The notes beneath the pieces are model-generated. The model saw only the letters and a list, made by a program, of their open reading frames with translations, had not been told where the DNA came from and did no database searches. A stretch of 64,000 nt of DNA, taken from assembly GCA_035575695.1 (NCBI GenBank), contig DATLXP010000053.1:1846-65845 (forward strand), in the 5' to 3' direction. Made by a program: the position numbers and the translations under genes. This document shows positions 7,738 to 60,278 of the stretch, one piece after another (positions within the stretch are counted from its first letter, which is position 1; each line of letters begins with the position of its first letter). Source of the stretch: Vicinamibacterales bacterium. GTDB lineage: Bacteria; Acidobacteriota; Vicinamibacteria; Vicinamibacterales; 2-12-FULL-66-21.

Positions 7738-7738
7738 A

Positions 7739-7790
7739 TCAGGAGCTAGGAGACAGAATTCAGGAGGCGGGAGACAGGAGACGACGCGCG
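7739..7790. repeat. purine-rich AGGAG-type short-period arm flanking four-helix-bundle gene 1
   Basis: AGGAGCTAGGAGACAGAATTCAGGAGGCGGGAGACAGGAGACGA. It contains the stop codon of the 4HB ORF. Confidence 0.6.
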
Positions 7791-8128
7791 TACGCCCCAA
7801 GCATTCGGCCGATTTCATCGACGGGCTCACGCTCACGGTCCTTCGCATAGCCAAGATCGGTCGCGAGAATGAAGTAATACCGCAGTTCTTCGAGGGAGGC
7901 CTGGGCCACATTCATCAGCCGTGCCTTGTCCGGGCGTCCACGCCGCTTGAAGCCCTCGGCGATGTTGGCAGAAACGGAAACCGCGGCGCGTCTCATCTGA
8001 GAGACGAGCCCATAGAGTTCGCTCTTGGGAAATTCTGACGTGAGTCGATAGACCTTCAACGTCATTGCGTGGCTCTTCTGCCAAACGATGAGTTCCTCGA
8101 ATGTCTTGGCCGGCTCTCGATCCGTCAT
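7760..8128 (-). CDS. four-helix-bundle protein (23S rRNA intervening-sequence protein / TIGR02436 / PF05635 family)
   Basis: 122 aa. FEELIVWQKSHAMTLKVYRLTSEFPKSELYGLVSQMRRAAVSVSANIAEGFKR...SLEELRYY matches the family signature. Visibly more AT-rich than its neighbours. Confidence 0.85.
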   Translation of the reverse strand: MTDREPAKTFEELIVWQKSHAMTLKVYRLTSEFPKSELYGLVSQMRRAAVSVSANIAEGFKRRGRPDKARLMNVAQASLEELRYYFILATDLGYAKDREREPVDEIGRMLGAYARRLLSPAS

Positions 8129-8159
8129 GGCTTCTCCTGTGTTCCTGCCGCTTGTCTAC

Positions 8160-8226
8160 GATCTTTTCGAGACCACAATCGCCCTGCCTCCTACCTCTTA
8201 CCTCCTACCTCCTGTCTTCGTCTCCT
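8160..8226. repeat. pyrimidine-rich CTCCT-type arm, inverted partner of 7739..7790
   Basis: CCTGCCTCCTACCTCTTACCTCCTACCTCCTGTCTTCGTCTCC. It contains the stop codon of CrtI-like paralog 2. Confidence 0.6.
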
Positions 8227-9793
8227 TGATCACTCGTCGTGCCGCGTTCCGTCCAGGTGCGCCCATGATTCCGCCGCCGGGGTGTGTGGCGGATCCGCAC
8301 ATGTAGAGGTTCCTGATCGGCGTCCGGTATTGCGCCCACCCGGGCGCGGGGCGCAGGAAGAACAGCTGCTCGAGCGTCAGCTCCCCCTGAAAAATATTAC
8401 CCTCGGTCAACCCGAAGTCGCGCTCGATGTCGAGCGGGGTGAGTACCTGGCGGTGCAGGATGATGTCTTTGATGTTCGGCGCATGTTCCGCGATCGTGTT
8501 GATGACGGTGTCGCCGAACGCATCCCGGTGGTCGTCCCACGTGCCTCCTTCCTTGAGGTGGTACGGCGCGTACTGGACGAAGCAGGACATGACGTGCTTG
8601 CCCGGCGGCGCCACGAAAGGATCGGTCAGGCTCGGGATCACCATGTCGATGTACGGACGCCTGGAGTACCGGCCGTACTTGGCCTCGTCATAGGCGCGCT
8701 CCATGTACTCGACGCTCGGGGAAATCGAGATCGCCCCGCGCAGGTGCGGGCCCGGCCCGGGCATCGCCGTGAAGTTCGGGAGCGCGTCGAGCGCCAGGTT
8801 CACCTTCCCGGACGATCCGCGGTACTTGTATCGCTTCACATCGCTCACGAACTCGTCGGGGAGGTTGTCTTCCCCGACCATTTTCAGGAACGTCAGGTTC
8901 GGGTCGACGCTCGACGAGACGACGTCCGCCGTCAGGTAGTCGCCGCTGGTCAGCACGACCCCCACGGCCGCGCCATCCTTGATGATGATCTTCGACACGG
9001 CGGTCTCGGAGCGGATCTCCACGCCCGCCTCACGCGCGGCGTCGGCGATGGCGTTCGAGATCGCGCCGGTCCCGCCGCGCGCAAATCCCCACGAGCGAAA
9101 GGCGCCGTCGATCTCTCCCATGTAGTGGTGGAGCAGCACGTAGGCCGTGCCTGGAGAACGCACGCCGAGAAATGTTCCGATGATCCCCGACGCCGACATC
9201 GTCGCCTTCAGCACGTCGGTTTCGAACCACTGGTCCAGGAAGTCGACCGCGCTCATCGTCATGAGCTGGACCTGGTTGTACTTGTCCTGATCGCGGAGCG
9301 CCTGGAACCGCTTGCCCAGAAAGAGCAGGTTCATCAGACCGCGCGGATCGAGAGAGGTCGGATCCGGCGGCGTCATGTTCAGGATGGGCTTGACGAAACG
9401 GCCCATCTCGACCATCGGCTTGCCGTACTCGTCATACGCCTCGGCGTCGAGCTTCGAGTGGCGTGCGATCTCCCGGTGCGTCCTGGCGTGGTCGTTCACG
9501 CGCCAGAGATAGTCGCCGCTCGGCATGGGCGTGAACGTGCCGTCGAGCGGCAGGATCTCGAGCCCGTGGCGCGGAAGCTCCAGCTCCCGGATGATCTCCG
9601 GACGGAGGAGCGACACGACGTACGACGCGACGGAAAACTTGAAGCCCGGGAAGATCTCTTCGGTCACCGCGGCGCCGCCGAGCACGTGCCTGCGCTCGAG
9701 CACGAGGACCTTGCGTCCGGCCCTGGCGAGATAGGCGGCGTGGACCAGCCCGTTGTGACCGCCGCCGATGACGATGACGTCGTAGTGGGGCAT
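8198..9793 (-). CDS. NAD(P)/FAD-dependent oxidoreductase, phytoene desaturase (CrtI/COG1233) family, paralog 2
   Basis: Rossmann start MPHYDVIVIGGGHNGLVHAAYLARAGRKVLVLE at the ATG at 9793. C-terminal GSATHPGGGIMGAPGRNAAR. Collinear similarity to 6160..7737. Confidence 0.85.
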   Translation of the reverse strand: MPHYDVIVIGGGHNGLVHAAYLARAGRKVLVLERRHVLGGAAVTEEIFPGFKFSVASYVVSLLRPEIIRELELPRHGLEILPLDGTFTPMPSGDYLWRVNDHARTHREIARHSKLDAEAYDEYGKPMVEMGRFVKPILNMTPPDPTSLDPRGLMNLLFLGKRFQALRDQDKYNQVQLMTMSAVDFLDQWFETDVLKATMSASGIIGTFLGVRSPGTAYVLLHHYMGEIDGAFRSWGFARGGTGAISNAIADAAREAGVEIRSETAVSKIIIKDGAAVGVVLTSGDYLTADVVSSSVDPNLTFLKMVGEDNLPDEFVSDVKRYKYRGSSGKVNLALDALPNFTAMPGPGPHLRGAISISPSVEYMERAYDEAKYGRYSRRPYIDMVIPSLTDPFVAPPGKHVMSCFVQYAPYHLKEGGTWDDHRDAFGDTVINTIAEHAPNIKDIILHRQVLTPLDIERDFGLTEGNIFQGELTLEQLFFLRPAPGWAQYRTPIRNLYMCGSATHPGGGIMGAPGRNAARRVIKETKTGGRR

Positions 9794-37559: not shown

Positions 37560-37574
37560 TGGCACACCCGTTGC
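37560..37574 (+). promoter_or_regulatory. sigma-54 (-24/-12) promoter upstream of flp
   Basis: TGGCACACCCGTTGC is a perfect match to TGGCAC-N5-TTGC. It lies about 105 nt upstream of the flp ATG. Confidence 0.6.
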
Positions 37575-50935: not shown

Positions 50936-51103
50936 GCATTCGGGCCGTTTTCTGCTGTGTTTGCCTGCTGTCCGTCATTGACAGCGGAAAACGCAGCGCG
51001 CTAGGATACCGGCTGTTTCTCTTTCAAATTCTCCGCAGTTGCTGCACGCGCGCGCGGCTTCTGAGGCACACGGATCAGCGCGCCCTAGCAAGGGGAATAG
51101 CCG

Positions 51104-51418
51104 ATGGCAGAGGCCCGCAGGATGGGCAAATCCGAATTGTTCTCGCATTTCGCGGACCGCTTCGAAGTGAAGCGGACGCAGGCGCGGGAGTTTTTCGACG
51201 AACTGAACACGCTGGCGGAGAAAGAGCTGAAGCGGTCTGGCGAGTTCGTGATTCCGGGGATGGTGAAGCTGGTGGTTCAGAAGCGGAAGGCGCGCATGGG
51301 CCGCAATCCCGCTACGGGCGAGCAGATCAAGATCGCCGCGAAGACCGTCGTCAAGGCGCGGATCGCCAAGCAGCTGAAGGACGCCGTCCTTCCCAAGGCG
51401 CCAGCGGCGCCGAAGTAA
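51104..51418 (+). CDS. HU/IHF family DNA-binding protein
   Basis: 104 aa. GKSELFSHFA...FVIPGMVKLVVQKRKARMGRNPATGEQIKIAAK is the typical HU arm. Confidence 0.85.
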   Translation: MAEARRMGKSELFSHFADRFEVKRTQAREFFDELNTLAEKELKRSGEFVIPGMVKLVVQKRKARMGRNPATGEQIKIAAKTVVKARIAKQLKDAVLPKAPAAPK

Positions 51419-51462
51419 CCCGCCGTTCACGCGGCATCAGCCACCGTCCGGGCGACATGGAG

Positions 51463-51776: not shown

Positions 51777-53519
51777 TCATCCTGCGATCTGCACCAGCGC
51801 CGCGGCGTGGGCGCGTGGAAAATCGAGCACGAACGTCGTGCCCTTGCCGACCTCGCTCGCGACGCTGATGCGTCCGCCGAGTTGTTCCACAATTTTTTTC
51901 GAGATGGCGAGACCGAGGCCGAGGCCGCGCCGTTTGGTCGTCACGAAGTCGTCGAAGATGGCGGCGAGGCGGTCCTCCGGAATGCCGCACCCCGTGTCGT
52001 AGATCCGGAACTGCACCCTGTCTGCCGTGGCCTCGGTGGCCACGACCACGAGCCCTCCTGGCGCGGTTGCCTGGATGGCATTCAGGATCAGGTTCCGGTG
52101 CACGCGGCCGAGCGCAAAGAGATCCCCTTCGATGAACGCAGGCTCTCGGGTCAACTCCGCCCGCAGGGTGAGGCCCGCCGTTTCGGCCAGGGGGGTCATG
52201 GTCTCCACGGCCTCCGCCAGCGTCGCATTGGCGTCGATCGAGAAGTGTTCGAGCGGCATCGGACGTGCGATGTTGCGCAGGTCGTCGAGTACGCGCTTCA
52301 CGGTCGCCAGCTCGCGCTCGACGGTCTGGCGAAACGTCGCGCGGTACTCGGCATCGTCGAAGATCCGCTGGATCAGCTTGCAACTGTTCCCGATGGTCTG
52401 GATCGGGTGCGACAGGTCGTGCACCAGGCCGGCGGCGATGCGACCGAACATCGCCTGACGCTCCTGCTTGCGGATTTCCTCCTGCAGTTCCACTAGCCGG
52501 TCGGCCATGGTGTTGAAGGCGTCGCCCAGCTGTCGGATTTCATCCTTGCCACGCGGGTGGACCCGCGCGTCCATGTCGCCGGCCGCCAGCGCCCGCGTCA
52601 CGCGCGTTAGCGCGACGATGCGGCGGATGAAGGAGCGTCCCCAGAGCCATCCGGCGCCCACGGTGGCGAGCAGGGCCAAGCCGATCGCCACGACCAGCTG
52701 GCGCTCCAGCGCGAGGGCCACGCCGAGCGCCTCTTTGCGGGGGTGTTCGACGATGACCGTCCAGTCGGGGACGGTGATGCGCGCGGCAACCGCGAGCATG
52801 GCGCCGGCGGGCCCCTCGATCTCACCTGCGGACGTGCGTGACCCGTCAGATCGAAGCCGGCTCGCCAGTTTCTGCTCCGGCGTCTGCGTGGCCCCGGACG
52901 CGATCAGGCGCTTTTGATCCGCGCGTCCGTGCGCGACGATCCTGCCGGTCTCGTCGAGGAGGACCGCAAATCCCGTGTCGCCGACGCGGATCCTGTCGAC
53001 CGCACGCCACAGTTCCTCGAGCGAGATCTCCGCAACGATCCATCCCGGCGTGGCGCCCGAAATCTGGAGCGCCATGGTGGTGGTGGGTAATCCATCATCG
53101 TCGAGGCGCGGTTGCGCGATGTACAACCCGCCGGTTCCACCCGTTCGTGGGGACGGGACGGCGAGCCTGGGCGACGTGGCCCGGCTGGTGGCGAGCACCT
53201 GGCCACTCCGATCGAACAGGGTGATTTCCAGAAACTCCTTGTAGTCCAGCACGTGATTTCGAAGGGTCCGTTCCTGCTGCCAGGCAGCCAGCTGCGTTCC
53301 CTGCAGTTGAGAGGCGATCGACCCGAGGACCCGCTGGTTGTTCTGGAAATAGAGATGGATGCGGTCGGCGATCTCGGTCGCGACCGCCGCGTTCCCGGCT
53401 CCCACCGACTGCGTCGTGCCGCTCCTCAGTGATCGGACCGACACCACTCCATAGATGAGCAGCGGCGCGACAGCGGCCGTGGCGATCAGCACCACGAAGC
53501 GCCCGGTGATACCCCTCAC
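51777..53519 (-). CDS. sensor histidine kinase (periplasmic Cache-like domain, HAMP, HisKA, HATPase_c)
   Basis: 580 aa. Two TM segments flank a ~260-aa sensor domain. HAMP (ALAAGDMDARV), H-box GLVHDLSHPI, N/G boxes NLILNAIQA, YDTGCGIP, GLGLGLAISKKIV. The GTG start overlaps the SBP stop (GTGA). Confidence 0.85.
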   Translation of the reverse strand: MRGITGRFVVLIATAAVAPLLIYGVVSVRSLRSGTTQSVGAGNAAVATEIADRIHLYFQNNQRVLGSIASQLQGTQLAAWQQERTLRNHVLDYKEFLEITLFDRSGQVLATSRATSPRLAVPSPRTGGTGGLYIAQPRLDDDGLPTTTMALQISGATPGWIVAEISLEELWRAVDRIRVGDTGFAVLLDETGRIVAHGRADQKRLIASGATQTPEQKLASRLRSDGSRTSAGEIEGPAGAMLAVAARITVPDWTVIVEHPRKEALGVALALERQLVVAIGLALLATVGAGWLWGRSFIRRIVALTRVTRALAAGDMDARVHPRGKDEIRQLGDAFNTMADRLVELQEEIRKQERQAMFGRIAAGLVHDLSHPIQTIGNSCKLIQRIFDDAEYRATFRQTVERELATVKRVLDDLRNIARPMPLEHFSIDANATLAEAVETMTPLAETAGLTLRAELTREPAFIEGDLFALGRVHRNLILNAIQATAPGGLVVVATEATADRVQFRIYDTGCGIPEDRLAAIFDDFVTTKRRGLGLGLAISKKIVEQLGGRISVASEVGKGTTFVLDFPRAHAAALVQIAG

Positions 53520-55018
53520 TGCGGCTTACCCGCCACGGGCCGCCACTGCCAGATGCTGGCAAGTGGGTCCTGGCTGTTGAACTCGCCCACTGAGAACTGG
53601 CGGTCGATCGCCCGCGTGACCTGCGCCCAGGCGATGAAGATCGCGGGCGCATCCTCGTAGAACCTCTGCACGAGCGCCGCAATGGCCGACCGCGTGCGCC
53701 CATCGTCGGTGCTGCTCCGGAGGTCCTCGAGGAGTCGATCGACCCCAGGATAACCACGCACCAAACTCTCGGGTCGCTTCGTGTGCCAGAACCGGTACGT
53801 GTAATCCAGAGAGCGGCCAGCGTTGACTCGAATGAGCGCCGTGTCGAAATTGCCGGACTGGACACGCTGCGCGATCGTGGTCATGTCGGCGGGCGTCAGC
53901 ACCAGGTTGATGCCGACATCGAACAACTGCCGCTGCAGGATGAGCGCGATCCGTTCGTATTGCGCATCCTCGCTCCAGAAGAGGCACCTCAGCGTGAGGC
54001 GTGTTCGCGTACCGTCGCGGGCAGCGCTGCCCGGAAGGCGCAAGCCGGCAAGGTCGAGCCGGCGTCTCGCCCCCACCGGGTCGTACGCGTGACGCATGCC
54101 TGCCGAGGGATAAGCCCAGTGAAAAGGCCAGATCGGATCGTTGGCCACGCGGCCGTGGCCCCTCATCGCCGCATCCAGGATGGCATCTCGATCGACGGCT
54201 TCGTTCAGTGCCCGCCGAACATCACGGCGCGCCAGCGCCGGGTGGTGATGGTTGAAGAGAAGGGGGATGTAGTACGGCTGCAGCGAAGGATACGTCTGCA
54301 CATTGTGGCTGCTGTCAACGAACTCGACAGTTTCGCGGCTCACTTCCTGTACGGCGTCGACTTCGTCGCGCATCAGGCCGGCCCAGGCGCCTCGCTGGGT
54401 GTCGTACGGCACGATCGTGACGCCCGTCACACCGGGCGTACCGCCATGATAACGATCGAACACGACGGTTTGGAAAGCCGGCTCCTTTGCGGTGATCTTG
54501 AACGGCCCGGTGCCGATATCGGGGGCCTCGGGCCGAACGATTTTCAGGACCGTCAACTCCGGCAGCAGGAAGAAGTCGGGCCGTGACAGGGAAACGACGA
54601 TGCTCCGTGGATCGGGAGCCACGACGCCGGTCACATACTCGAAGCCCAGCGAGCTTGTGAGCCGCGAACGCCTGATGATGTCTGCCACCATCTCTGCGGT
54701 GAGCAGTGCTCCGTCGTGGAGCCGTACGTTCGGCTTCAACTGGAGCCGCAAGGTTTCCCCCCCGTCTTCCCACTGCCAACCGGAGACGAGGCCCGCGACC
54801 GCCCGGCCGTCGAGCCCTCGCGACACGAGCGACTCTGAAAACAGCAAGGCGCCCAGATTCGCGACGGCGTTCTCGCGGACGCTCGATCCGAGGCCGATGC
54901 CGATGCGAACCATGGGCGGCGGTGAAGCCGCTCCCGGGCTCGCATGACAGCTCGCCGACGCGAGGAGGCCCATCAGCGCGAGTGCGCACGTGCTCCCCCG
55001 ACAGGAAATTCGCGTCAT
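53516..55018 (-). CDS. family 5 (OppA/DppA/NikA-like) periplasmic solute-binding protein
   Basis: Signal peptide MTRISCRGSTCALALMGLLASASCHA from the ATG at 55018. SBP_bac_5-like blocks (GTGPFKI..., YHGG). No permease or ATPase genes are adjacent. Confidence 0.8.
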   Translation of the reverse strand: MTRISCRGSTCALALMGLLASASCHASPGAASPPPMVRIGIGLGSSVRENAVANLGALLFSESLVSRGLDGRAVAGLVSGWQWEDGGETLRLQLKPNVRLHDGALLTAEMVADIIRRSRLTSSLGFEYVTGVVAPDPRSIVVSLSRPDFFLLPELTVLKIVRPEAPDIGTGPFKITAKEPAFQTVVFDRYHGGTPGVTGVTIVPYDTQRGAWAGLMRDEVDAVQEVSRETVEFVDSSHNVQTYPSLQPYYIPLLFNHHHPALARRDVRRALNEAVDRDAILDAAMRGHGRVANDPIWPFHWAYPSAGMRHAYDPVGARRRLDLAGLRLPGSAARDGTRTRLTLRCLFWSEDAQYERIALILQRQLFDVGINLVLTPADMTTIAQRVQSGNFDTALIRVNAGRSLDYTYRFWHTKRPESLVRGYPGVDRLLEDLRSSTDDGRTRSAIAALVQRFYEDAPAIFIAWAQVTRAIDRQFSVGEFNSQDPLASIWQWRPVAGKPQ

Positions 55019-55027
55019 CGCCACGCA

Positions 55028-55041
55028 GCGGCCCGGGCCGC
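55028..55041 (-). terminator. GC palindrome directly after precursor peptide B (candidate attenuator hairpin)
   Basis: GCGGCCCGGGCCGC is a perfect 14-nt palindrome abutting the TAG of the peptide ORF, 10 nt before the SBP ATG. No U-tract. Confidence 0.25.
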
Positions 55042-55136
55042 TACTTCCTGCTTCCGAGCATGTCTTCGACGACAAAGGGACAGACTGCCGAGCTGCTCTT
55101 CTTCACTTCCGCCTTCTTGATGATCGTGATCTTCAT
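55041..55136 (-). CDS. 31-aa candidate RiPP precursor peptide B (not in the ORF track)
   Basis: Manual translation: MKITIIKKAEVKKSSSAVCPFVVEDMLGSRK. AGGAGA lies 5 nt upstream of the ATG. Gap-free alignment with the peptide at 55221..55316. Sits 2 genes downstream of the rSAM-SPASM gene. Confidence 0.5.
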   Translation of the reverse strand: MKITIIKKAEVKKSSSAVCPFVVEDMLGSRK

Positions 55137-55168
55137 GATTCTCTCCTGAAAGTTGACTGTCGTGCATT

Positions 55169-55224
55169 CCGATCGGCCGATTGGCCGATCGATCGATCGA
55201 TCGATGGACCGATAGATCGATTAC
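55169..55224. repeat. seven 8-bp units of the CGAT type between the two precursor-peptide ORFs
   Basis: ccgatcgg ccgattgg ccgatcga tcgatcga tcgatgga ccgataga tcgattac. It overlaps the stop codon of peptide A. Confidence 0.8.
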
Positions 55225-55316
55225 CTGAGGTGCTCGATCGCCACATCGACCAGCCAGGGCTTCAGCGTGCCGTTCTTCTTGGTCGTGCTCGCTTTCGTCG
55301 TGATCGTCTTGTTCAT
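55221..55316 (-). CDS. 31-aa candidate RiPP precursor peptide A (not in the ORF track)
   Basis: Manual translation: MNKTITTKASTTKKNGTLKPWLVDVAIEHLR. AGGAGA lies 5 nt upstream of the ATG, which is 22 nt downstream of the rSAM-SPASM stop. Confidence 0.5.
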   Translation of the reverse strand: MNKTITTKASTTKKNGTLKPWLVDVAIEHLR

Positions 55317-55338: not shown

Positions 55339-56796
55339 CTAGTTCGCCAGCGCAGCCGTCAGGCTGGCGGCGGCGTCGCGGGCCATGGATACGACGCCGG
55401 CTTCGAAACTTGTCTTGTGGCAGCTCGGGGCGTTCATGTCGCCGAGCTCCGTGTGTGACGCGACGGTGCAGCCACCGGCGCAGACGGGGATGAAGGCACA
55501 GCCTTCGCACGCCTTCCACGCGGCGAGTCGATCGAACCGCCCGGCTGCCGCCGACCGCAGCGCGTCGGTCGCCCCGCTGATGTCCCCGGTCGACATGGAA
55601 CGATTCCCGGTGAATCCGGGGCACGCGTAGAGATCTCCGTCGGGCCCAATCGTGTGGGAGTGCCTGCGGTGAATCTCGCACGGCCCCATGTGGACCCCAT
55701 CGCTCGTTCGGAATCCGCGCTTCTTCGTTTCGGCACGCAGGAAGGACGTCTGGTCGTCGAGGAAGTGACACGTGTCGCACCCGGCGGCGGCGCCCCCCCC
55801 GGCCGACGTCATGCACGTGCCATTGAGCGGTTTACTGTCGCCGCCGACTGGCGCCAGCCCGATGAACTTCGATCTCCCGGTCGCGGTGGTCGCGGCAGGG
55901 CTGGTCTTGCCCTCACGGATGATGGCCTTGAACGCGATGCTCTTGAGGTGGGGAGCGACGTCCTGCGCCGCGAGAAAGTCGATCAGCGCCGGGTAGGACT
56001 CGACCGACGACTCGTCGAAGTTGCCACCGATGGAGATCGCGCACCGGCCCGCGACTTGGCGCAGGTTGTGGATGATCCGGTCGAACGTGCCCTGCCCGCC
56101 GCGCAACGGCCGCATCCGGTTGTGCGTGTCGCGGTCCCCGTCGAGCGTGATCTTGAAGCCATTGAGGCCGAACGGTTCGAGCCGGTCGACGATGTCGGGG
56201 GTGAGCAGCAGGCCGTTGGTGATGACGTTGATCGACAGGCGCACACCCCGGGCGGCCGAGGCGTGCCAGAGCCGCTCCGCGAGGTAGTACATCACCGGCA
56301 GGTTGAGCAGCGGCTCTCCGCCGAAGAACGTCAGCACGAACTTCTCAGGTGAAATGGCATCCATCCGTGCCTCGGCCCACTCACCGACCCGCGCCGCCGT
56401 CGCCATCGTCATTTTCGCAGCGGTTTTGTTGTACTCCCCGTGATCACCCTGGAAGCAGTAGTCGCATGCGAAGTTGCACTGCAGCGTCGTCAGGACCGTG
56501 ATCCGCAGTTCGTCGTCTCCCTCGCGAACGTCGCGGAAGAAATTCTCGAGGCGCTGCCACTCGTCACGCCGGTCGCGGACCAGGAAGCCGTGTTCGGCGA
56601 GGGTTCGGATCGAGTCCTCCTCGTCCGGGCGGCGCGCGCCGTCGCCGGCGTCGACGTGACCGTCGATGCGATCAAGGAGCGACACCACGTCGTTCGAGAC
56701 GATCAGCTGGGCGTCGGTGAGGGTGTTCATGAGGAACACCTCGCCACCCGACGACTCGGCGAGAGGCACACGTACGTTGAACTGCGAAGACTGCAT
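55339..56796 (-). CDS. radical SAM / SPASM domain peptide-modifying enzyme with N-terminal PqqD/RRE-like region
   Basis: The likely start is the ATG at 56796 (AAGGAG upstream); the ORF track extends to 56922. CNFACDYCFQ (CX3CX2C) motif. C-terminal SPASM Cys pattern CPGF...CEGCAFIPVCAGGC. The N-terminal ~90 aa (FLMNTLTDAQLIVSNDVVSLLDRI...LAEHGFLV) look like a leader-recognition element. Confidence 0.85.
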   Translation of the reverse strand: MQSSQFNVRVPLAESSGGEVFLMNTLTDAQLIVSNDVVSLLDRIDGHVDAGDGARRPDEEDSIRTLAEHGFLVRDRRDEWQRLENFFRDVREGDDELRITVLTTLQCNFACDYCFQGDHGEYNKTAAKMTMATAARVGEWAEARMDAISPEKFVLTFFGGEPLLNLPVMYYLAERLWHASAARGVRLSINVITNGLLLTPDIVDRLEPFGLNGFKITLDGDRDTHNRMRPLRGGQGTFDRIIHNLRQVAGRCAISIGGNFDESSVESYPALIDFLAAQDVAPHLKSIAFKAIIREGKTSPAATTATGRSKFIGLAPVGGDSKPLNGTCMTSAGGGAAAGCDTCHFLDDQTSFLRAETKKRGFRTSDGVHMGPCEIHRRHSHTIGPDGDLYACPGFTGNRSMSTGDISGATDALRSAAAGRFDRLAAWKACEGCAFIPVCAGGCTVASHTELGDMNAPSCHKTSFEAGVVSMARDAAASLTAALAN

Positions 56797-56869: not shown

Positions 56870-56885
56870 TGCAACGGATGTTCCG
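56870..56885 (-). promoter_or_regulatory. candidate sigma-54 promoter for the rSAM/peptide/SBP/kinase operon
   Basis: The minus strand reads CGGAACATCCGTTGCA. GG-N10-GC spacing is correct and the -12 element TTGCA is perfect; the -24 element matches 4 of 6. It lies about 75 nt upstream of the ATG at 56796. Confidence 0.4.
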
Positions 56886-57026: not shown

Positions 57027-57066
57027 GGCCAACTAATTGGCCGGACAGGCCAACTGGTTGGCCTGT
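57027..57066. promoter_or_regulatory. two palindromes sharing GGCCAA/TTGGCC half-sites: candidate enhancer (UAS) for the adjacent sigma-54 activator
   Basis: ACAGGCCAAC-TG-GTTGGCCTGT (57045..57066, a perfect 10-2-10 palindrome that overlaps the regulator's stop codon) and GGCCAA-CTAA-TTGGCC (57027..57042). They lie about 145-195 nt upstream of the candidate -24/-12 element. Confidence 0.35.
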
Positions 57067-58451
57067 CACCCGCGGAGCTTGCGGGCGATGTCGCGCAGAT
57101 CGAGGCGCGCCATCTTGTGCTTGAGCGTGCTGAGGGGGAGCCCGAGGTACCTCGCGGTCGCGGTCACGTTCCAGTCACCTTTTTCGAGCGCGCGCAGAAT
57201 GAAGTTCCGCTCGAACGTGTCGCAGGCCTCCTGGAACAGCGTGTCTCCGCCGGACGGCTGTGCCGAATCCAGTTTGGCGAAGTGATACTCGAGGGGGAGG
57301 TCCTCGTCGGTGATCCACTCCTTGTCGGTCACGGCGACGAGTCGCTCGATCAGGTTTTCGAGCTCGCGGATATTGCCAGGCCACCAGTACGTCGACAGGA
57401 TCTTCAGCGCGGACCCCGAGATCCCGCGAACGGGCTTCCGGAACTTGGCGCGGTAGCGGGCGAGGAATAGCCGTGCGAGCTCGGGGAGGTCGTCGAGGCG
57501 GTCACGGAGCGGAGGCATCCGGATCGGGATGACGTTGATCCGGTAGTAGAGGTCCTCGCGGAACCGGCCGTCCTTCACTGCCTTCTCGAGATCCACGTTG
57601 GTCGCGACGATGAGCCGGAAGTCGGTGCGGATCGGTTTCGACCCGCCGACGCGCTCGATCTCCCCTTCCTGGATGGCGCGCAGGAACTTTGCCTGGAGGT
57701 CGAACCGCAGGTCCCCGATTTCGTCGAGGAACAGCGTGCCGCCGGCCGCCAGCTCGAACTTCCCGAGCTGTTGCTTGTGGGCTCCCGTGAACGAGCCTCG
57801 CTCGTGGCCGAACAGCGTGCTCTCGACGAGCTCGTGCGGAATCGCGGACAGGTTCACGGCGATGAACGCCGCCTCACCCTTTCCGGACTCGCGATGCAGC
57901 AGCCGCGCGAGGAGTTCCTTGCCGGTCCCGCTCTCCCCGAGGATCAACACCGTGGCCGGGAGTTTCGCCACCTTCTGGACCAGGTCGACGATGTCGCGGA
58001 TCTGGCGGCTGGGTCCGATGAGGAACTCGCGCTCTCCGTGCTCGGCCACCTGAGCGCTGAGGGTGATGACCTGCCTGTTGAGGTCCTGCCGCTCGAACGC
58101 ATTGCGGACGAGCGAGCGGAGTTCGTCGTAGTCGAACTCCTTGGTGATGTAGTGATACGCGCCATGCTTCATCGCCTGCACGGCCGTCTCGACCTCATTG
58201 ATCGCCGAGATCATGATGCACTCGACCAGGCCGTAGTTCTCCCGCACGATCCGCAGCACGTCGAACCCGCTGATCCCGGGCAGGCGCACGTCGAGCAGGA
58301 TCAGGTCGACATCCGCTTCGCGCAGCAGGACGAGCGCTGCCTCGCCGCTCGAGACAGTGAGCACGCGATAGTCCCGCTTGAGGATCGCCGACAGCGTGTC
58401 GCGCATCCCCTGGTCGTCGTCGCAGATAAGAATGGTCTTGCCGTGAGCCAT
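57066..58451 (-). CDS. sigma-54-dependent Fis family response regulator (NtrC-type enhancer-binding protein)
   Basis: 461 aa. REC domain (LILLDVRLPG), AAA+ Walker A GESGTGKE, GAFTGA-type loop ERGSFTGA, C-terminal Fis HTH WNVTATARYLGLPLSTLKHKM. Confidence 0.9.
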   Translation of the reverse strand: MAHGKTILICDDDQGMRDTLSAILKRDYRVLTVSSGEAALVLLREADVDLILLDVRLPGISGFDVLRIVRENYGLVECIMISAINEVETAVQAMKHGAYHYITKEFDYDELRSLVRNAFERQDLNRQVITLSAQVAEHGEREFLIGPSRQIRDIVDLVQKVAKLPATVLILGESGTGKELLARLLHRESGKGEAAFIAVNLSAIPHELVESTLFGHERGSFTGAHKQQLGKFELAAGGTLFLDEIGDLRFDLQAKFLRAIQEGEIERVGGSKPIRTDFRLIVATNVDLEKAVKDGRFREDLYYRINVIPIRMPPLRDRLDDLPELARLFLARYRAKFRKPVRGISGSALKILSTYWWPGNIRELENLIERLVAVTDKEWITDEDLPLEYHFAKLDSAQPSGGDTLFQEACDTFERNFILRALEKGDWNVTATARYLGLPLSTLKHKMARLDLRDIARKLRG

Positions 58452-58462
58452 TTTGGGCGGAT

Positions 58463-58607
58463 TCTATCCGATTGCCCGACAAGTCGACCAATCGACCTAT
58501 CGGCCTATCGGCCAATCGACCGATCGACCGATAAGTCGATAAGCCGATAGATCGATAGATCGATAGATCGATCAACTAATAGACCGATAACCCGATACGG
58601 TGATACC
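58463..58607. repeat. about 18 consecutive 8-bp units switching from TATCG phase to CGATA phase (empty inverted double array)
   Basis: ...accaatcg acctatcg gcctatcg gccaatcg accgatcg accgataa gtcgataa gccgatag atcgatag atcgatag atcgatca... It lies upstream of the divergent sigma-54 regulator and the lpdA operon. Confidence 0.85.
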
Positions 58608-58609
58608 GT

Positions 58610-58867
58610 TTGACGGTTGTGGTTCTGTGGGGATTTGCAACCGTCACGCTCCTCGTCGCGCTGGGTGCCCTGGTGCTCGCACGGCGCGTCTCGCGCAAGC
58701 TCGAGGCGCTCACCCAGTCCTACTGGGAGCTGCGTTACGACTACACGCGTTTGCGCTCCCAGATGACGCGGCTCGACCCTGACGAAGCCGAGGCAGCTCA
58801 GCCGCCCACCGCTCAGTCAACGGTGACGTTCGTTCCGCTTGCATCGATGAAAAAGAAGAATGAGTAA
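58610..58867 (+). CDS. hypothetical small single-pass membrane protein preceding lpdA
   Basis: 85 aa. TTG start (uncertain). One TM segment then a charged helix. GC3-rich codons. The stop overlaps the lpdA start by 8 nt. Confidence 0.4.
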   Translation: MTVVVLWGFATVTLLVALGALVLARRVSRKLEALTQSYWELRYDYTRLRSQMTRLDPDEAEAAQPPTAQSTVTFVPLASMKKKNE

Positions 58868-60278
58868 TGAATACGACGTCGTAGTGATCGGCTCGGGCAC
58901 GGGCGGATATGTGGCTGCCATCAGGGCGGCGCAACTGGGGTTGAAGACCAGTGTGGTCGAACGCGCGCCCACGCTTGGCGGCACATGCCTCAATTGGGGA
59001 TGTATCCCGACCAAGGCACTCCTCGAGCATGCTCACGCACTGAAGATCGCGCAGGACTGGAAGGAGTGGGGCCTGACGATCGGCCAGGCCGCCGTCGGCA
59101 TCGACATGAACCAGGTGCACGCGCGCAAAGACAAGATCGTCAAGGGTCTCACCGGCGGCATCGAGATGCTGTTCAAGAAGAACAAGATCGACTGGATCAA
59201 GGGCAGCGGCCGCCTCGCGGGTAAAGGCAAGGTCGAGATCACCGAGGGGCAGAAGCAGACCGTCACCGCCCGCAAGGAGATCGTCGTCGCCACCGGTTCG
59301 ACGCCGCGCAGCGTGCCGGGCATCGAGATCGATCGCAAACGGATCATCACCAGCGACGAAGCGATCCACATGAAGGAGATCCCCAAGTCGATCGTGATTA
59401 TGGGCAGCGGCGCGGTCGGCGTCGAATTCGGGTCGATCTTCCGTCGCTTCGGGAGCGACGTCACGATCATCGAGCTCCTGCCCCGCATCGTGCCGGTGGA
59501 GGATGAGGCGGTGTCGGCGGAGCTCGAGAAGTCCTTCAAGAAACAGGGCATCAAGGTGTTGACCGGCACGAAGGTGACGAGCGCCAGGGCTGGTGCGAGC
59601 GCCGTCGACATCGAAGCGCAGACGCCCGATGGCAAGACGACGAAGCTCAGTGCGGACTACCTGCTCGTGGCCACAGGGCGTGGCCCCGTCACCGCCGGGC
59701 TCGGTGCGGAAGAGGCCGGTCTCCAGATGGACCGCGGGTACATCCGCGTGGATCAGGAGTTCAAGACGACCGTCGGCGGGATCTCCGCGATCGGCGACGT
59801 GATCACGTTCGACAAGCCGGGACACCCTCAGCTGGCGCACCTGTCCTCGGCGGAAGGGATCGTGCTGGCGGAAAGAATCGCAGGCAGGGAGTACCGGCCG
59901 ATCAACTACGACCAGGTCCCCGGCTGCACGTACTGTGACCCGGAGATCGGCAGCGTCGGCCTGACCGAGACACAGGCCCAGGAGCGCGGCTTCGACGTGA
60001 AAACCGGGTCGTTCAAGTTCGGCGTGCTCGCACGAGCGCGGATGGCGGGCGAGACCGAGGGATTCGTCAAGATCGTGTTCGACAAGAAATACGACGAGAT
60101 CCTCGGCGTGCACATGATCGGGCCTCGCGCCACGGAACTGGTCGCCGAGGCGACCGTCGCCTTGAAGCTCGAGTGCACGGTCGAAGAGCTCGTACGCACG
60201 ATTCACGCGCATCCGACGATGTCGGAGGCGGTCGGAGAGGCCGCCCACGCGGCACACGGCTCCGCGATACACGCATAG
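58860..60278 (+). CDS. lpdA: dihydrolipoyl dehydrogenase (E3)
   Basis: 472 aa. YDVVVIGSGTGGYVAAIRAAQLG, redox-active disulfide GGTCLNWGCIPTK, C-terminal HAHPTMSE. Confidence 0.9.
   Translation: MSNEYDVVVIGSGTGGYVAAIRAAQLGLKTSVVERAPTLGGTCLNWGCIPTKALLEHAHALKIAQDWKEWGLTIGQAAVGIDMNQVHARKDKIVKGLTGGIEMLFKKNKIDWIKGSGRLAGKGKVEITEGQKQTVTARKEIVVATGSTPRSVPGIEIDRKRIITSDEAIHMKEIPKSIVIMGSGAVGVEFGSIFRRFGSDVTIIELLPRIVPVEDEAVSAELEKSFKKQGIKVLTGTKVTSARAGASAVDIEAQTPDGKTTKLSADYLLVATGRGPVTAGLGAEEAGLQMDRGYIRVDQEFKTTVGGISAIGDVITFDKPGHPQLAHLSSAEGIVLAERIAGREYRPINYDQVPGCTYCDPEIGSVGLTETQAQERGFDVKTGSFKFGVLARARMAGETEGFVKIVFDKKYDEILGVHMIGPRATELVAEATVALKLECTVEELVRTIHAHPTMSEAVGEAAHAAHGSAIHA

Follow-up and report, generated by a model that had tools for sequence, protein, structure and literature searches.

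The window, that is, the whole 64-kb stretch of Vicinamibacterales DNA analysed here (64,000 nucleotides), contains a six-gene module on its minus strand. In reading order, a gene for a sigma-54-dependent response regulator is followed by tandem palindromes and a predicted sigma-54 promoter, and then by genes for a radical SAM (rSAM)/SPASM peptide maturase, the short peptides pepA and pepB, a solute-binding protein (SBP), and a histidine kinase. The features are as follows:

57066..58451, minus strand: sigma-54-dependent response regulator (Pfam Response_reg, Sigma54_activat, AAA_lid_14, HTH_8)
57027..57063, minus strand: tandem palindromes GGCCAACCAGTTGGCC and GGCCAATTAGTTGGCC, read from the sequence; candidate upstream activator sites
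56870..56885, minus strand: predicted sigma-54-type promoter CGGAACATCCGTTGCA, with GG-N10-GC spacing; the pattern is conserved in relatives
55339..56796, minus strand: radical SAM/SPASM peptide maturase, 485 aa (Pfam Radical_SAM, Fer4_12, SPASM)
55221..55316, minus strand: pepA, 31-aa Cys-less peptide MNKTITTKASTTKKNGTLKPWLVDVAIEHLR; conserved ORF with a near-invariant core
55169..55221, no strand assigned: spacer between pepA and pepB with a (CGAT)x9 / CCGATCGG tandem repeat, read from the sequence
55041..55136, minus strand: pepB, 31-aa precursor-like peptide MKITIIKKAEVKKSSSAVCPFVVEDMLGSRK; conserved ORF with an invariant Cys
55027..55042, minus strand: 16-nt GC palindrome (8-bp stem-loop) overlapping the pepB stop codon; candidate attenuator or mRNA-stabilising hairpin
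53516..55018, minus strand: family-5 solute-binding lipoprotein of the peptide/nickel type (Pfam SBP_bac_5, lipobox-like signal)
51777..53519, minus strand: sensor histidine kinase (dCache_1, HAMP, HisKA, HATPase_c)

For comparison with this stretch, 80 syntenic Vicinamibacterales loci were recovered, and peptide relatives were collected through the loci of maturase homologues. Maturases of 30-40% identity were collected from a representative library, and the best of these seeded a second homologue search. The module is conserved across the order Vicinamibacterales: a collection of species-representative genomes gave 314 stretches confirmed by tblastn, and metagenomes yielded upwards of 3000 homologues. 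Because conserved housekeeping genes (lipoamide dehydrogenase, HU, and QueF) surround the module, plain vertical inheritance accounts for part of the synteny seen in the order. Two minus-strand ORFs (58710-60272 and 50975-51430) were rejected as conserved neighbours: their translations look like antisense artefacts, and they lie outside the module because the real genes there, encoding lipoamide dehydrogenase and an HU-like protein, are on the plus strand. Domain scans and inspection of neighbouring genes revealed no exporter or leader peptidase in the module or the window, and aminopeptidase genes (M55, M29) adjoin only two distant relatives. Neither pepA nor pepB has a recognisable secretion signal.

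The peptide genes and their maturase

An earlier note on this DNA described pepA (55316->55221) and pepB (55136->55041) as two ORFs of 31 codons, each followed by a stop, and what it observed is borne out in every detail checked. Both ATG codons are preceded by AGGAGA at a distance of 5 nt, and gaps of 22 nt separate the rSAM stop codon (55339-55341) from the pepA ATG and the pepB stop codon from the ATG at 55018. The two peptides align without gaps and are identical at eight positions (M1, T4, I5, K8, A9, K13, P20, and V23); pepB begins 84 nt past pepA. The description of the two genes as unannotated holds for the ORF track supplied, but identical peptides are already present in public metagenome gene sets, either unnamed or as “hypothetical protein.”

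Tens of related genomes keep both genes as open frames, each with its Shine-Dalgarno sequence, and third codon positions carry most of the variation in each. Nucleotide entropy at codon positions 1, 2, and 3 is 0.58, 0.24, and 1.11 in the pepA core and 0.70, 0.43, and 1.06 in the pepB leader, with pN/pS ratios of 0.31 and 0.36, respectively. A pepB-type ORF with a Shine-Dalgarno sequence was found by regex in 67 of 69 loci and by eye in the remaining two; in essentially all loci with enough downstream DNA, one to five tandem copies of the pepB-type gene follow the rSAM/SPASM gene. A pepA-type ORF is present in 54 of the 69 loci and always lies between the rSAM gene and pepB. Paralogy of the two peptides is confirmed by hhalign of their cores (probability 79%, E 1.7e-5), in the register of the earlier alignment, and two loci (L038 and L044) encode hybrids that join a leader of the B type to a core of the A type; L044, from a Luteitalea MAG, has one such hybrid alongside four B-type copies. 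When pepA and pepB were scanned against Pfam and NCBIfam, neither gave a match, and 59 scanned B-type peptides gave only chance-level matches, to AgrD and methanobactin models.

Taken as genes, pepA and pepB are almost certainly real: a translated-looking, paralogous pair under purifying selection. There is next to no prospect that they are chance frames in GC-rich intergenic DNA, or that pepA extends the rSAM gene by read-through or a frameshift. Short ORFs are common in 66% G+C DNA (159 ORFs of at least 25 aa in one 14-kb stretch), and the two long minus-strand ORFs nearby themselves look like antisense artefacts; chance frames do not, however, explain Shine-Dalgarno sequences, intact frames, and third-position variation across tens of species, nor the finding that neither peptide motif occurs in any other ORF of the 64-kb window. 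Read-through is contradicted by the frame of pepA, which differs from that of the rSAM gene, and by the variable length of the spacer among loci. The comparative data thus refute both versions. Domain scans and conserved synteny also uphold the assignment of both peptide genes to the adjacent rSAM/SPASM enzyme; a peptide gene adjoins the maturase gene in 80 loci, and throughout the order the pair accompanies the maturase.

The two peptide types have distinct but overlapping signatures. The pepB-type consensus is MKIxVVKK…C-P-W-x-V-D/E…, and pepB of the window has the leader MKIxIIKK and the core C-P-[W/F]-x-V-[D/E]. Within the order, Cys19 and an Asp/Glu at +5 from it are each invariant (94/94 pepB-type peptides), and an aromatic residue occupies position 21 (Cys +2) in 89 of the 94, giving the forms CPW, CPF, and CAW; some relatives lack an aromatic at +2 or +3 (e.g., CITVVDD, CIALVDD). 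The near-invariant pepA core is L[R/K]PWLVDVxV[E/D]xLR (family form …LRPWLVDVxV[E/D]xLR), in which P-W-L-x-D is invariant in all 59 peptides and the third positions of these codons vary. Position 19 of pepA is Arg in 53 peptides, Lys in three, Thr in two, and His in one. Common to both types are P20, an aromatic at 21, a hydrophobic residue at 23, and Asp/Glu24. The N-terminal half had been proposed as leader-like in both peptides. For pepB this stands, as MK[IV]x[IV][IV]KK is nearly invariant and the pepB-type leader recurs in a Syntrophobacterales relative (L082), but most pepA relatives lack a leader-like strand.

The true start of the maturase is ATG 56796, giving 485 aa; the listed 527-aa ORF starts too early. 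The protein matches Pfam Radical_SAM (56 bits) and the SPASM model TIGR04085 (47.5 bits, above the cut-off of 27). It has both the CxxxCxxC motif and a Cys-rich SPASM extension, and C107, C111, C114, and ten C-terminal Cys residues are invariant among 25 homologues. The nearest PDB entry is CteB, a thioether synthase, both by sequence (E 5e-16) and by fold (TM 0.56/0.63, full length), and SuiB is the second-best structural match. In an AF2 model of modest quality, three N-terminal strands are followed by helices (pLDDT 57-77 in this region, mean 62). This N-terminal domain looks like a RiPP recognition element (RRE) in the model, which aligns over its full length with the RRE-bearing CteB, at the same modest confidence and with a Pfam PqqD match absent.

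Predicted promoter region, stem-loop, and the binding protein and kinase genes

The “sensor genes” mentioned in the earlier note are a family-5 solute-binding lipoprotein and a dCache histidine kinase; these two genes, the sigma-54 response regulator, and the predicted sigma-54 promoter belong to the same conserved module, which the note had missed. The response regulator combines a receiver, an AAA+ sigma-54 activator, and a Fis-type HTH domain. It is about 90% identical across most Vicinamibacterales loci and always lies directly upstream of the operon. The palindromes GGCCAACCAGTTGGCC and GGCCAATTAGTTGGCC are 16 nt each, with centres 21 nt apart, and a palindrome of the GGCCAA-N4-TTGGCC type occurs in 54 of 78 loci, some 160-180 nt ahead of the promoter-like site. 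To judge from their sequence and placement, the tandem palindromes are likely upstream activator sites for the response regulator. The rSAM start codon follows the predicted promoter CGGAACATCCGTTGCA after about 75 nt. Of 78 loci, 76 match a loose GG/TTGC pattern ahead of the rSAM gene, mostly as YGGAAY-N5-TTGCW at the same relative position. The Syntrophobacterales locus L082 has a canonical TGGCAT-N5-TTGCT before its rSAM gene, and in L087 a sigma-54 site is found at the annotated start of the SBP gene, which is the first gene of the module there. The conserved promoter-like site and the regulator gene together make the operon look sigma-54-controlled.

The palindrome noted after pepB, GCGGCCCGGGCCGC at 55041-55028, is present and extends to 16 nt (55042-55027), forming an 8-bp GC stem. 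In its 66% G+C context it folds no better than shuffled sequences (z = -0.56), and no U-tract follows. The attenuator role proposed for it is plausible in that stable stem-loops are common after the last pepB (mean energy among relatives -16.4 kcal/mol, versus -8.0 after pepA), but the sequence is not conserved and only 15% of the stem-loops have z < -2. In L082, a hairpin followed by a T-run lies after the pepB-type gene. A classical terminator was rejected here: the hairpin lacks a U-tract, and the sole terminator-like match is a weak 5-bp stem further on. A stem-loop in this position may raise the ratio of peptide to sensor transcripts.

The ATG at 55018 opens a lipoprotein-type signal peptide of the SBP, with a lipobox-like MTRISCRGSTCALALMGLLASASC. 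The SBP is a distant homologue of NikA, AppA, and DppA, and among its closest relatives of known structure are binders of peptides and of nickel/metallophores; no ABC permease gene was found next to it by Pfam scan or among the neighbouring genes. Of the module's proteins it diverges fastest, with a mean p-distance of 0.64. The start of the kinase gene overlaps the SBP stop by 4 nt. The kinase is syntenic in loci that extend far enough, and its periplasmic part varies more than the kinase core. Divergence of the SBP tracks that of pepB (Mantel r = 0.65; partial r = 0.39 with the maturase and response regulator controlled, and 0.28 with the kinase controlled as well; p = 0.001), although any two proteins that evolve fast on a common tree can correlate in this way.

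In other phyla, peptide, rSAM enzyme, SBP, and Cache kinase again occur together. Distant relatives keep a short Cys-aromatic peptide, the rSAM enzyme, an SBP_bac_5 protein, and a dCache kinase, the last two flanking the rSAM and peptide genes in varied orders in Syntrophobacterales, Planctomycetes, and further unclassified metagenome contigs; a Poribacteria locus has an HTH-SBP_bac_5 fusion instead. A C(C)-x-W core recurs in the peptides of these phyla, and every distant relative seen has Cys or Cys-Cys.

Related rSAM systems and the candidate cross-link

The closest described counterpart is the geopeptide system (peptide TIGR04229 and maturase TIGR04280), a computationally defined “hypothetical equivalog” for which no experimental characterisation was found in the literature searched. 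TIGR04280 is the best-scoring NCBIfam family of the maturase, and in both systems a short peptide gene adjoins the rSAM/SPASM gene. The peptide of locus L083, a weak match to TIGR04229 (E 0.033, 14 bits), shares the plan of pepB: a hydrophobic N-terminal strand, a linker of about ten residues, and a Cys-aromatic core. However, the maturase scores 253.1 bits against a cut-off of 400, close relatives score 256-263 and relatives from other phyla 243-345, and none of the 18 distant maturases scanned reaches the cut-off. Likewise, pepA and pepB have no TIGR04229 match at E up to 10 (cut-off 30 bits), and neither the 59 B-type relatives nor the A-type relatives tested gave one. The pepB of the order has one Cys, with Pro-Trp after it and an invariant acid at +5, whereas most relatives retrieved from other phyla have Cys-Cys-x-aromatic (L082 has a single Cys). 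The second, Cys-less peptide type in Vicinamibacterales also sets the module apart from the geopeptide system.

Below TIGR04280 rank several Cys-dependent peptide maturases, namely CefB, TIGR04463, PapB, QhpD-type, and SCIFF, and the nearest structure, CteB, belongs to the SCIFF/ranthipeptide group; PapB, CteB, and QhpD are rSAM/SPASM enzymes that make thioethers from Cys. The substrates of PapB and QhpD carry Cys-Asp/Glu thioethers. By analogy, the invariant Cys of pepB with its nearby invariant Asp/Glu resembles these substrates and would be compatible with such a thioether. The scores nonetheless fall well below the family cut-offs (PapB, NF047865, 122.5 versus 340 bits; SCIFF, TIGR03974, 91 versus 425; QhpD-type, 110 versus 453). 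SCIFF peptides have six Cys in about 45 residues, whereas pepB has one and pepA none, and the spacing in pepB is C-x4-D/E rather than C-x3-D.

Streptide systems (StrA/StrB, SuiA/SuiB), which make a Lys-Trp cross-linked peptide under quorum-sensing control, likewise place a short peptide beside an rSAM/SPASM enzyme with an RRE, and the tie between their production and a signalling circuit may find an analogue here. Trp is invariant in pepA. In contrast to streptide, Lys19 is not conserved, and regulation would involve an SBP, a histidine kinase, and sigma-54 rather than Rgg/SHP, in a host that is a Gram-negative soil Acidobacterium. Matches to the three-residue cyclophane families (XyeB/FxsB/YhhB) are weak, at 69 bits for YhhB (cut-off 445) and 55 bits for FxsB (cut-off 370).

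SPASM enzymes of similar sequence are known to catalyse different reactions. From residue invariance and the relatives of the enzyme we infer the type of cross-link and its partners. There is a good likelihood that pepB is a substrate of the rSAM enzyme, and an even chance that it acquires a Cys-based thioether. As a RiPP precursor, pepB would dock on the N-terminal recognition domain of the maturase through its N-terminal strand (MKIxVVKK), and the maturase would then use the invariant Cys19 for an intramolecular cross-link, most likely a thioether, with the acceptor within the next five residues. Asp/Glu24, invariant in the order, and the aromatic at 21, kept across phyla, are both candidate acceptors. 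pepA may have arisen by duplication of pepB, with the Cys lost (now Arg/Lys), the leader lost in most lineages, and the core frozen as PWLVDV. Because pepA cannot undergo Cys chemistry, it could be an unmodified partner or decoy, or the recipient of a different modification.

Two other chemistries have to be weighed against a Cys-based thioether. The earlier note had proposed a link between residue 19 and the aromatic at 21, as a Lys-Trp C-C bond in pepA and a sactionine-type Cys-Phe/Trp thioether in pepB. Its two residues are well kept in pepB, the Cys-x-aromatic arrangement survives across phyla (CLW, CAW, CSW, and CFW in distant relatives), and the Lys-Trp enzyme SuiB is the second-best structural match. 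Even so, this chemistry is improbable. CteB is a better match than SuiB by both sequence and fold, the pepB relatives without an aromatic at +2 or +3 retain the Asp/Glu at +5, which is constant in the order, and an i-to-i+2 ring is very small for known sactionine or streptide links. Lys19 is atypical of the pepA family, and because Arg is the norm at that position, the streptide-like Lys19-Trp21 link is not a conserved feature of the family.

A modification independent of Cys would act on the shared P-W-x-V-D of both peptides, as a Trp-centred three-residue C-C cyclophane or an epimerisation, with pepA and pepB both substrates. pepA lacks Cys yet shares this motif with pepB, and the conserved chemistry could accordingly be non-Cys; the four positions common to both types and the invariant PWLVD of pepA point the same way, as do the L038 and L044 hybrids, whose B-type leader joined to a Cys-less SPWLVD core would be odd if Cys were essential. 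Against this stand the presence of Cys in every B-type peptide and of Cys or Cys-Cys in every distant relative, the low cyclophane-family scores, and the lack, in most pepA peptides, of the leader strand required by an RRE-dependent enzyme. Cys-independent chemistry is therefore rather unlikely, and a cross-link through Cys19 of pepB is the preferred reading.

A possible sensing loop

Sensing through a periplasmic binding protein has functional analogues in LuxP-LuxQ (AI-2) and DppA-Tap (dipeptides). As in these analogues, an orphan binding protein gene adjoins, and is translationally coupled with, that of a membrane sensor, with a sigma-54 activator downstream; in Vibrio this activator is LuxO, and LuxO is among the NCBIfam matches of the response regulator (329 bits, below its cut-off). 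The differences are that the presumed ligand is a ribosomal, rSAM-modified peptide of the same operon, that the SBP belongs to family 5 rather than to the LuxP-type sugar binders, and that the kinase is of the dCache/HAMP type.

Given the gene content and its conservation, the peptide product is probably what the binding protein, kinase, and sigma-54 regulator detect. The mature pepB product would reach the periplasm or the exterior and be bound there by the orphan binding lipoprotein, which would signal via the dCache kinase. At the end of this relay, the sigma-54 activator would switch on the peptide operon, a positive feedback as in a peptide pheromone circuit. For detection of the product by the SBP and kinase, taken as a step of its own, we put the chances slightly below even.

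The peptide could also be an effector (metal-binding or antagonistic) and not a signal, with the SBP and kinase sensing an unrelated ligand, such as a nickel/metallophore complex or an environmental oligopeptide, and switching production on. Among the nearest characterised relatives of the SBP are NikA, CntA-type metallophore binders, and agrocinopine/opine binders, and a family-5 SBP is likewise encoded in methanobactin operons. The module lacks an identifiable exporter or protease, and the core Cys and carboxylate could be metal ligands. An effector is nevertheless doubtful, because neither changes in gene order nor the distance between phyla separate the SBP and Cache kinase from the rSAM-peptide pair, and such tight co-inheritance is expected if the SBP recognises the product. 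In addition, divergence of the SBP follows that of the peptide beyond that of the regulator and the enzyme, and one lineage fuses an SBP domain to an HTH domain beside the maturase.

The best overall explanation, in which we have moderate confidence, is that pepB is the cross-linked substrate, pepA its Cys-less paralogue, and the product is sensed by a loop of SBP, kinase, and sigma-54 activator. A bolder version, an undescribed multi-phylum Gram-negative pheromone circuit that runs from rSAM-cross-linked pepB through the SBP, dCache kinase, and sigma-54 activator back to the peptide operon, with pepA as antagonist, decoy, or second signal, is possible but unlikely. Full-text literature searches found no published description of the system.

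Vicinamibacterales rank with the most abundant bacteria of soils, and to our knowledge almost nothing is known about their communication. The locus looks like an uncharacterised peptide-signalling system of these abundant soil Acidobacteria. If the peptide is the ligand of its own binding-protein, kinase, and sigma-54 circuit, this would be a new class of Gram-negative modified-peptide signalling, in a field dominated by small molecules, and the whole uncharacterised geopeptide-like superfamily, found in several phyla, would acquire a function. The pair of Cys-containing and Cys-less peptides is a natural experiment on how the enzyme recognises its substrate and acts on it. Should the signalling model prove wrong, a defined context would still be gained for two gene families hitherto labelled “hypothetical protein” or left uncalled.

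Two peptide genes conserved across an order

Two small ORFs lie on the minus strand downstream of the gene for the radical SAM/SPASM protein, the putative maturase: pepA, encoding a Cys-less peptide, and pepB, encoding a peptide with Cys19.

Small ORFs downstream of the maturase gene, from translation
55316-55221, minus strand: pepA, 31 codons
55136-55041, minus strand: pepB, 31 codons

Re-translation reproduces exactly both translations of the earlier note, and AGGAGA is present five bases ahead of each ATG. The gap-free alignment does have the eight identities stated, and the 22-nt separations from flanking genes are also right, one between the radical SAM stop and the pepA ATG, the other between the pepB stop and ATG 55018. 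The latter is the most plausible start of the downstream gene and begins a lipoprotein-type signal peptide. Both ORFs had been called unannotated; identical peptides have already been predicted in metagenomes by public gene callers, though only as nameless entries or 'hypothetical protein'. No further ORF of the window contains an A-type or B-type motif.

A scan of one genome per prokaryotic species with an alignment of 25 maturase homologues gave 314 confirmed stretches, of which the best 80 were kept. These 80 belong to Vicinamibacterales or Vicinamibacteria wherever the title gives a rank below phylum; the others are labelled Acidobacteria or Acidobacteriota only. The small ORFs downstream of the maturase gene form two families. 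B-type peptides (pepB) begin with MK[IV]x[IV][IV]KK, followed by about 10 variable residues and C-[P/A]-[W/F/Y]-x-[V/I]-[D/E]; after this come a Pro-rich segment and a basic tail. Of the 69 loci whose downstream DNA reaches 600 nt or more, 67 have them by a strict pattern and the remaining two with a slightly different start. They occur in one to five tandem copies; a Luteitalea MAG (L044) has four near-identical copies with a 162-nt period. A-type peptides (pepA) have a variable Lys-rich start and then L-R-P-W-L-V-D-V-x-V-[E/D]-x-L-R as the extreme C-terminus. They are found in 54 of 69 loci, always between the maturase gene and the B copies, and the loci that lack them mostly have more divergent maturases (about 58-62% identity to the window protein).

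Mean nucleotide entropy at codon positions 1, 2 and 3 is 0.58, 0.24 and 1.11 in the A core and 0.70, 0.43 and 1.06 in the B leader. The third position is the only variable site in the codons for P, L, V and D of the A type and for C and D/E of the B type. The A core has a pN/pS ratio of 0.31, the B leader one of 0.36, and the B core, taken together with its flanks, one of 0.76. The substitution pattern of both families is that of coding sequence, and the proposal that both ORFs are real genes is borne out by their conservation as ORFs in syntenic loci, with variation at the third position. Chance ORFs are excluded.

Comparing the A and B alignments profile to profile recovers the core register proposed earlier (probability 79%, E 1.7e-5); pepA and pepB are paralogues with different fates. 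Cys and the Asp/Glu at +5 are present in 94 of 94 B peptides, an aromatic residue at +2 in 89 and Pro at +1 in 66. All 59 A peptides retain P-W-L and D, and constraint on the A core is stronger than on the B core. At the A position aligned to the B Cys, Arg is found in 53 peptides, Lys in three, Thr in two and His in one; the window's Lys19 is therefore an exception, and pepA cannot undergo any Cys-dependent reaction. The suggestion that the N-terminal half is a leader stands for the pepB type, where MK[IV]x[IV][IV]KK is conserved, but the leader-like strand is gone from most A peptides. Two hybrid peptides, MKIRISARGNDEGRIPGKVSPWLVDVPDVPPTGPQQ and MKIKIVARTSDDRRTSGKVSPWLVDMPEVPPNAAEE, from the syntenic loci L038 and L044, combine a B-type leader with a Cys-less A-type SPWLVD core. 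The L038 hybrid lies about 173-283 nt past the radical SAM match, and that of L044 is the first small ORF after the radical SAM gene. Both may be evolutionary intermediates that link the A and B types.

Most of the 84-nt spacer between pepA and pepB is taken up, at 55169-55221, by the tetranucleotide repeat (CGAT)x9, with which about four copies of CCGATCGG overlap; it folds into two hairpins. A similar sequence, GATCGATAGATCGATC, occurs upstream of the regulator gene, at 58558-58573 in the divergent intergenic region. Slippage, GATC methylation sites and a binding site are all possibilities for the repeat.

The maturase and its gene module

The true start of the maturase is ATG 56796, giving 485 aa and matching homologues. 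Among curated families TIGR04280, 'geopeptide radical SAM maturase', fits best, scoring 253 bits where the cut-off is 400. The next families (CefB, TIGR04463, FlmE/OhkG, PapB, Clo7bot, and the quinohemoprotein amine dehydrogenase, nif11-type and SCIFF maturases) all score far under their cut-offs. An NCBI soil-metagenome record gives the name 'geopeptide radical SAM maturase' to P0042, a 70%-identical homologue that scores only 263 bits against the current 400-bit cut-off, so the public name is looser than the curated family. CxxxCxxC (C107, C111, C114) and ten more Cys in the C-terminal half are invariant among the 25 homologues. The nearest solved structure by sequence is the SCIFF thioether synthase CteB (E 5e-16). 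The AlphaFold2 model, only moderately reliable (mean pLDDT 62), opens with three strands, then helices; its best full-length match is again CteB (TM 0.56/0.63), followed by SuiB, SkfB and ChlB. CteB is thus closest in both sequence and predicted fold, a similarity that does not fix the chemistry. This places the protein, as a prediction, among leader-dependent peptide cross-linkers, nearest to those that form Cys thioethers.

Genes of the module and genes opposite two rejected ORFs
57066-58451, minus strand: sigma-54 response regulator, first gene of the module
53516-55018, minus strand: family-5 solute-binding lipoprotein (SBP), following pepB
51777-53519, minus strand: dCache/HAMP histidine kinase, start overlapping the SBP stop
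58860-60278, plus strand: lipoamide dehydrogenase, the real gene opposite ORF 58710-60272
51104-51418, plus strand: HU-like protein, the real gene opposite ORF 50975-51430

The order regulator, maturase, pepA, pepB, SBP, kinase is identical in all loci that reach far enough. The flanks are housekeeping genes, lipoamide dehydrogenase and E1 subunits on one side and HU and QueF on the other. The minus-strand ORFs 58710-60272 and 50975-51430 were rejected as genes; despite tblastn 'conservation' across loci, they are antisense shadows of plus-strand genes, and their translations are Arg/Asp/Leu-rich and of low complexity. Such shadows call for caution with ORF tracks in 66% G+C DNA.

The interval from the regulator stop to the maturase start contains a pair of 16-nt palindromes, GGCCAACCAGTTGGCC and GGCCAATTAGTTGGCC, spaced 21 nt from centre to centre. 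Some 145 nt beyond them, CGGAACATCCGTTGCA has the GG-N10-GC spacing of sigma-54 promoters. Of 78 loci, 76 have the promoter-like site, usually in the form CGGAAY-N5-TTGCA, and 54 have a palindrome of the GGCCAA-N4-TTGGCC type. Together they form what is, by sequence, the classical layout of an enhancer-dependent promoter, at which the adjacent regulator would act. The GC palindrome reported after pepB is present, with a length of 16 nt (55042-55027) rather than 14. As an attenuator it fares less well, its hairpin being no better than same-composition shuffles (z = -0.56) and lacking a U-tract. Stem-loops often follow the last B gene in relatives, with a mean energy of -16.4 kcal/mol, versus -8.0 after pepA, and could conceivably adjust how much peptide transcript there is relative to sensor transcript.

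Elsewhere in the window, the only perfect match to the sigma-54 consensus TGGCAC-N5-TTGC is at 37560-37574 on the plus strand. Shortly downstream, two small Flp-pilin-like ORFs (EEGQDLLEYALLVALIALV; EEGQDLLEYGLLAALIAVF) and a prepilin-peptidase-like membrane protein, with ORFs extending to about 38745, suggest a sigma-54-driven Flp/Tad pilus locus.

Related loci in other phyla

A library of representatives at 50% identity contains 532 proteins with E up to 1e-30. The 30-40% identical maturases scanned score 243-345 bits to TIGR04280, in the same sub-threshold zone; two further distant maturases have no match to it at the 1e-60 reporting threshold. Nine distant-relative loci, L081-L089, were read.

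Gene content of the loci of distant maturase relatives
L081: contig begins at the radical SAM gene; dCache kinase next
L082, Syntrophobacterales: sigma-54 regulator, canonical sigma-54 promoter, radical SAM, peptide MKLKVVKKGSKEDKKVLWCFWYLYV, hairpin with T-run, SBP_bac_5, dCache kinase
L083-L085, L088 and L089, five metagenome loci: SBP, peptide (e.g., MIVKVLDRGTENPVDILAFCCLWFEGDYA), radical SAM, hybrid dCache-PAS kinase
L086, Candidatus Poribacteria, 6340-8250: 636-aa protein after the radical SAM gene, SBP_bac_5 with a weak HTH_11 match
L087, Planctomycetes: SBP, peptide (VCCPAFAF), radical SAM, dCache kinase, sigma-54 regulator

In all the peptides of these loci, a linker separates a hydrophobic strand at the N-terminus from a Cys or Cys-Cys, after which an aromatic residue comes. 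Among them, one matches the geopeptide model weakly (14 bits, E 0.033); the Vicinamibacterales peptides do not match it. Given the parts shared across phyla, what the window holds is one divergent branch of a wide geopeptide-like superfamily, consistently accompanied by a family-5 binding protein and a Cache sensor kinase. A literature search found no published description of a geopeptide-like radical SAM protein with these two partners.

Individual loci have features of their own. The 636-aa protein of L086 stands in place of the separate binding protein and kinase found elsewhere, and a 54-aa ORF ending LSACCATSYTNYGG lies directly past it. In L082 (10017-10577), an extra sigma-54-type site, TGGTATGGAAATTGCT, directly follows the kinase gene ahead of two small uncharacterised genes (66 and 77 aa), which may be further targets of the same regulator. 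Aminopeptidase genes adjoin two distant modules (Peptidase_M29, L081 3187-4554; Peptidase_M55, L083 2223-3023); they are candidate leader-trimming enzymes with no counterpart in the window's module.

Possible functions of the peptides

In the proposed mechanism, pepB would be the maturase substrate, its leader docking on the N-terminal domain of the enzyme and Cys19 serving as the partner in radical chemistry, with the bond probably a thioether. Within the order the best acceptor candidate is Asp/Glu24, because it is invariant; across phyla it is the aromatic residue 21, because the C-x-aromatic motif is conserved. A crosslink between residues 19 and 21, as suggested in the earlier note, is possible in pepB as a Cys-aromatic bond, but a Lys-Trp bond in pepA is unlikely, Arg being the norm at position 19. 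Alternatively, Cys-independent chemistry could act on the common P-W-x-V-D motif, in which case pepA and pepB would both be substrates. The hybrids give a hint of it, but the invariance of Cys everywhere else speaks against such chemistry, which is improbable.

The mature product of pepB is probably recognised by the SBP, since this protein lacks a transporter partner, stays with peptide and enzyme through rearrangements, and diverges faster than any other protein of the module. Mean p-distance is 0.64 for the SBP, 0.59 for pepB, 0.44 for the kinase (least conserved in its periplasmic part), 0.35 for the radical SAM protein and 0.21 for the regulator. SBP and pepB divergence are correlated (Mantel r = 0.65; partial r 0.39 after removal of radical SAM and regulator distances, and 0.28, p = 0.001, after removal of the kinase as well), which is suggestive only, because two proteins that both evolve fast on one tree can show such a correlation with no interaction between them. 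The kinase would then signal to the sigma-54 activator and on to the operon's own promoter, a positive feedback. This autoinduction reading is tentative; its main weakness is that it does not account for the exit of the peptide from the cell. The module contains no ABC permease, exporter or protease. The peptide might instead be an effector, with the SBP and kinase sensing something else. The nearest solved relatives of the SBP (NikA, AppA, AgaA and DppA) speak for this, and it too is possible though somewhat doubtful.

Short precursors beside radical SAM/SPASM enzymes are already known, and the nearest named family exists, computationally defined. New are the order-wide two-peptide design with its frozen Cys-less paralogue, the single-Cys core C-P-W-x-V-[D/E], the predicted sigma-54 promoter and enhancer layout, and the cross-phylum linkage with an orphan family-5 binding protein and a Cache kinase.
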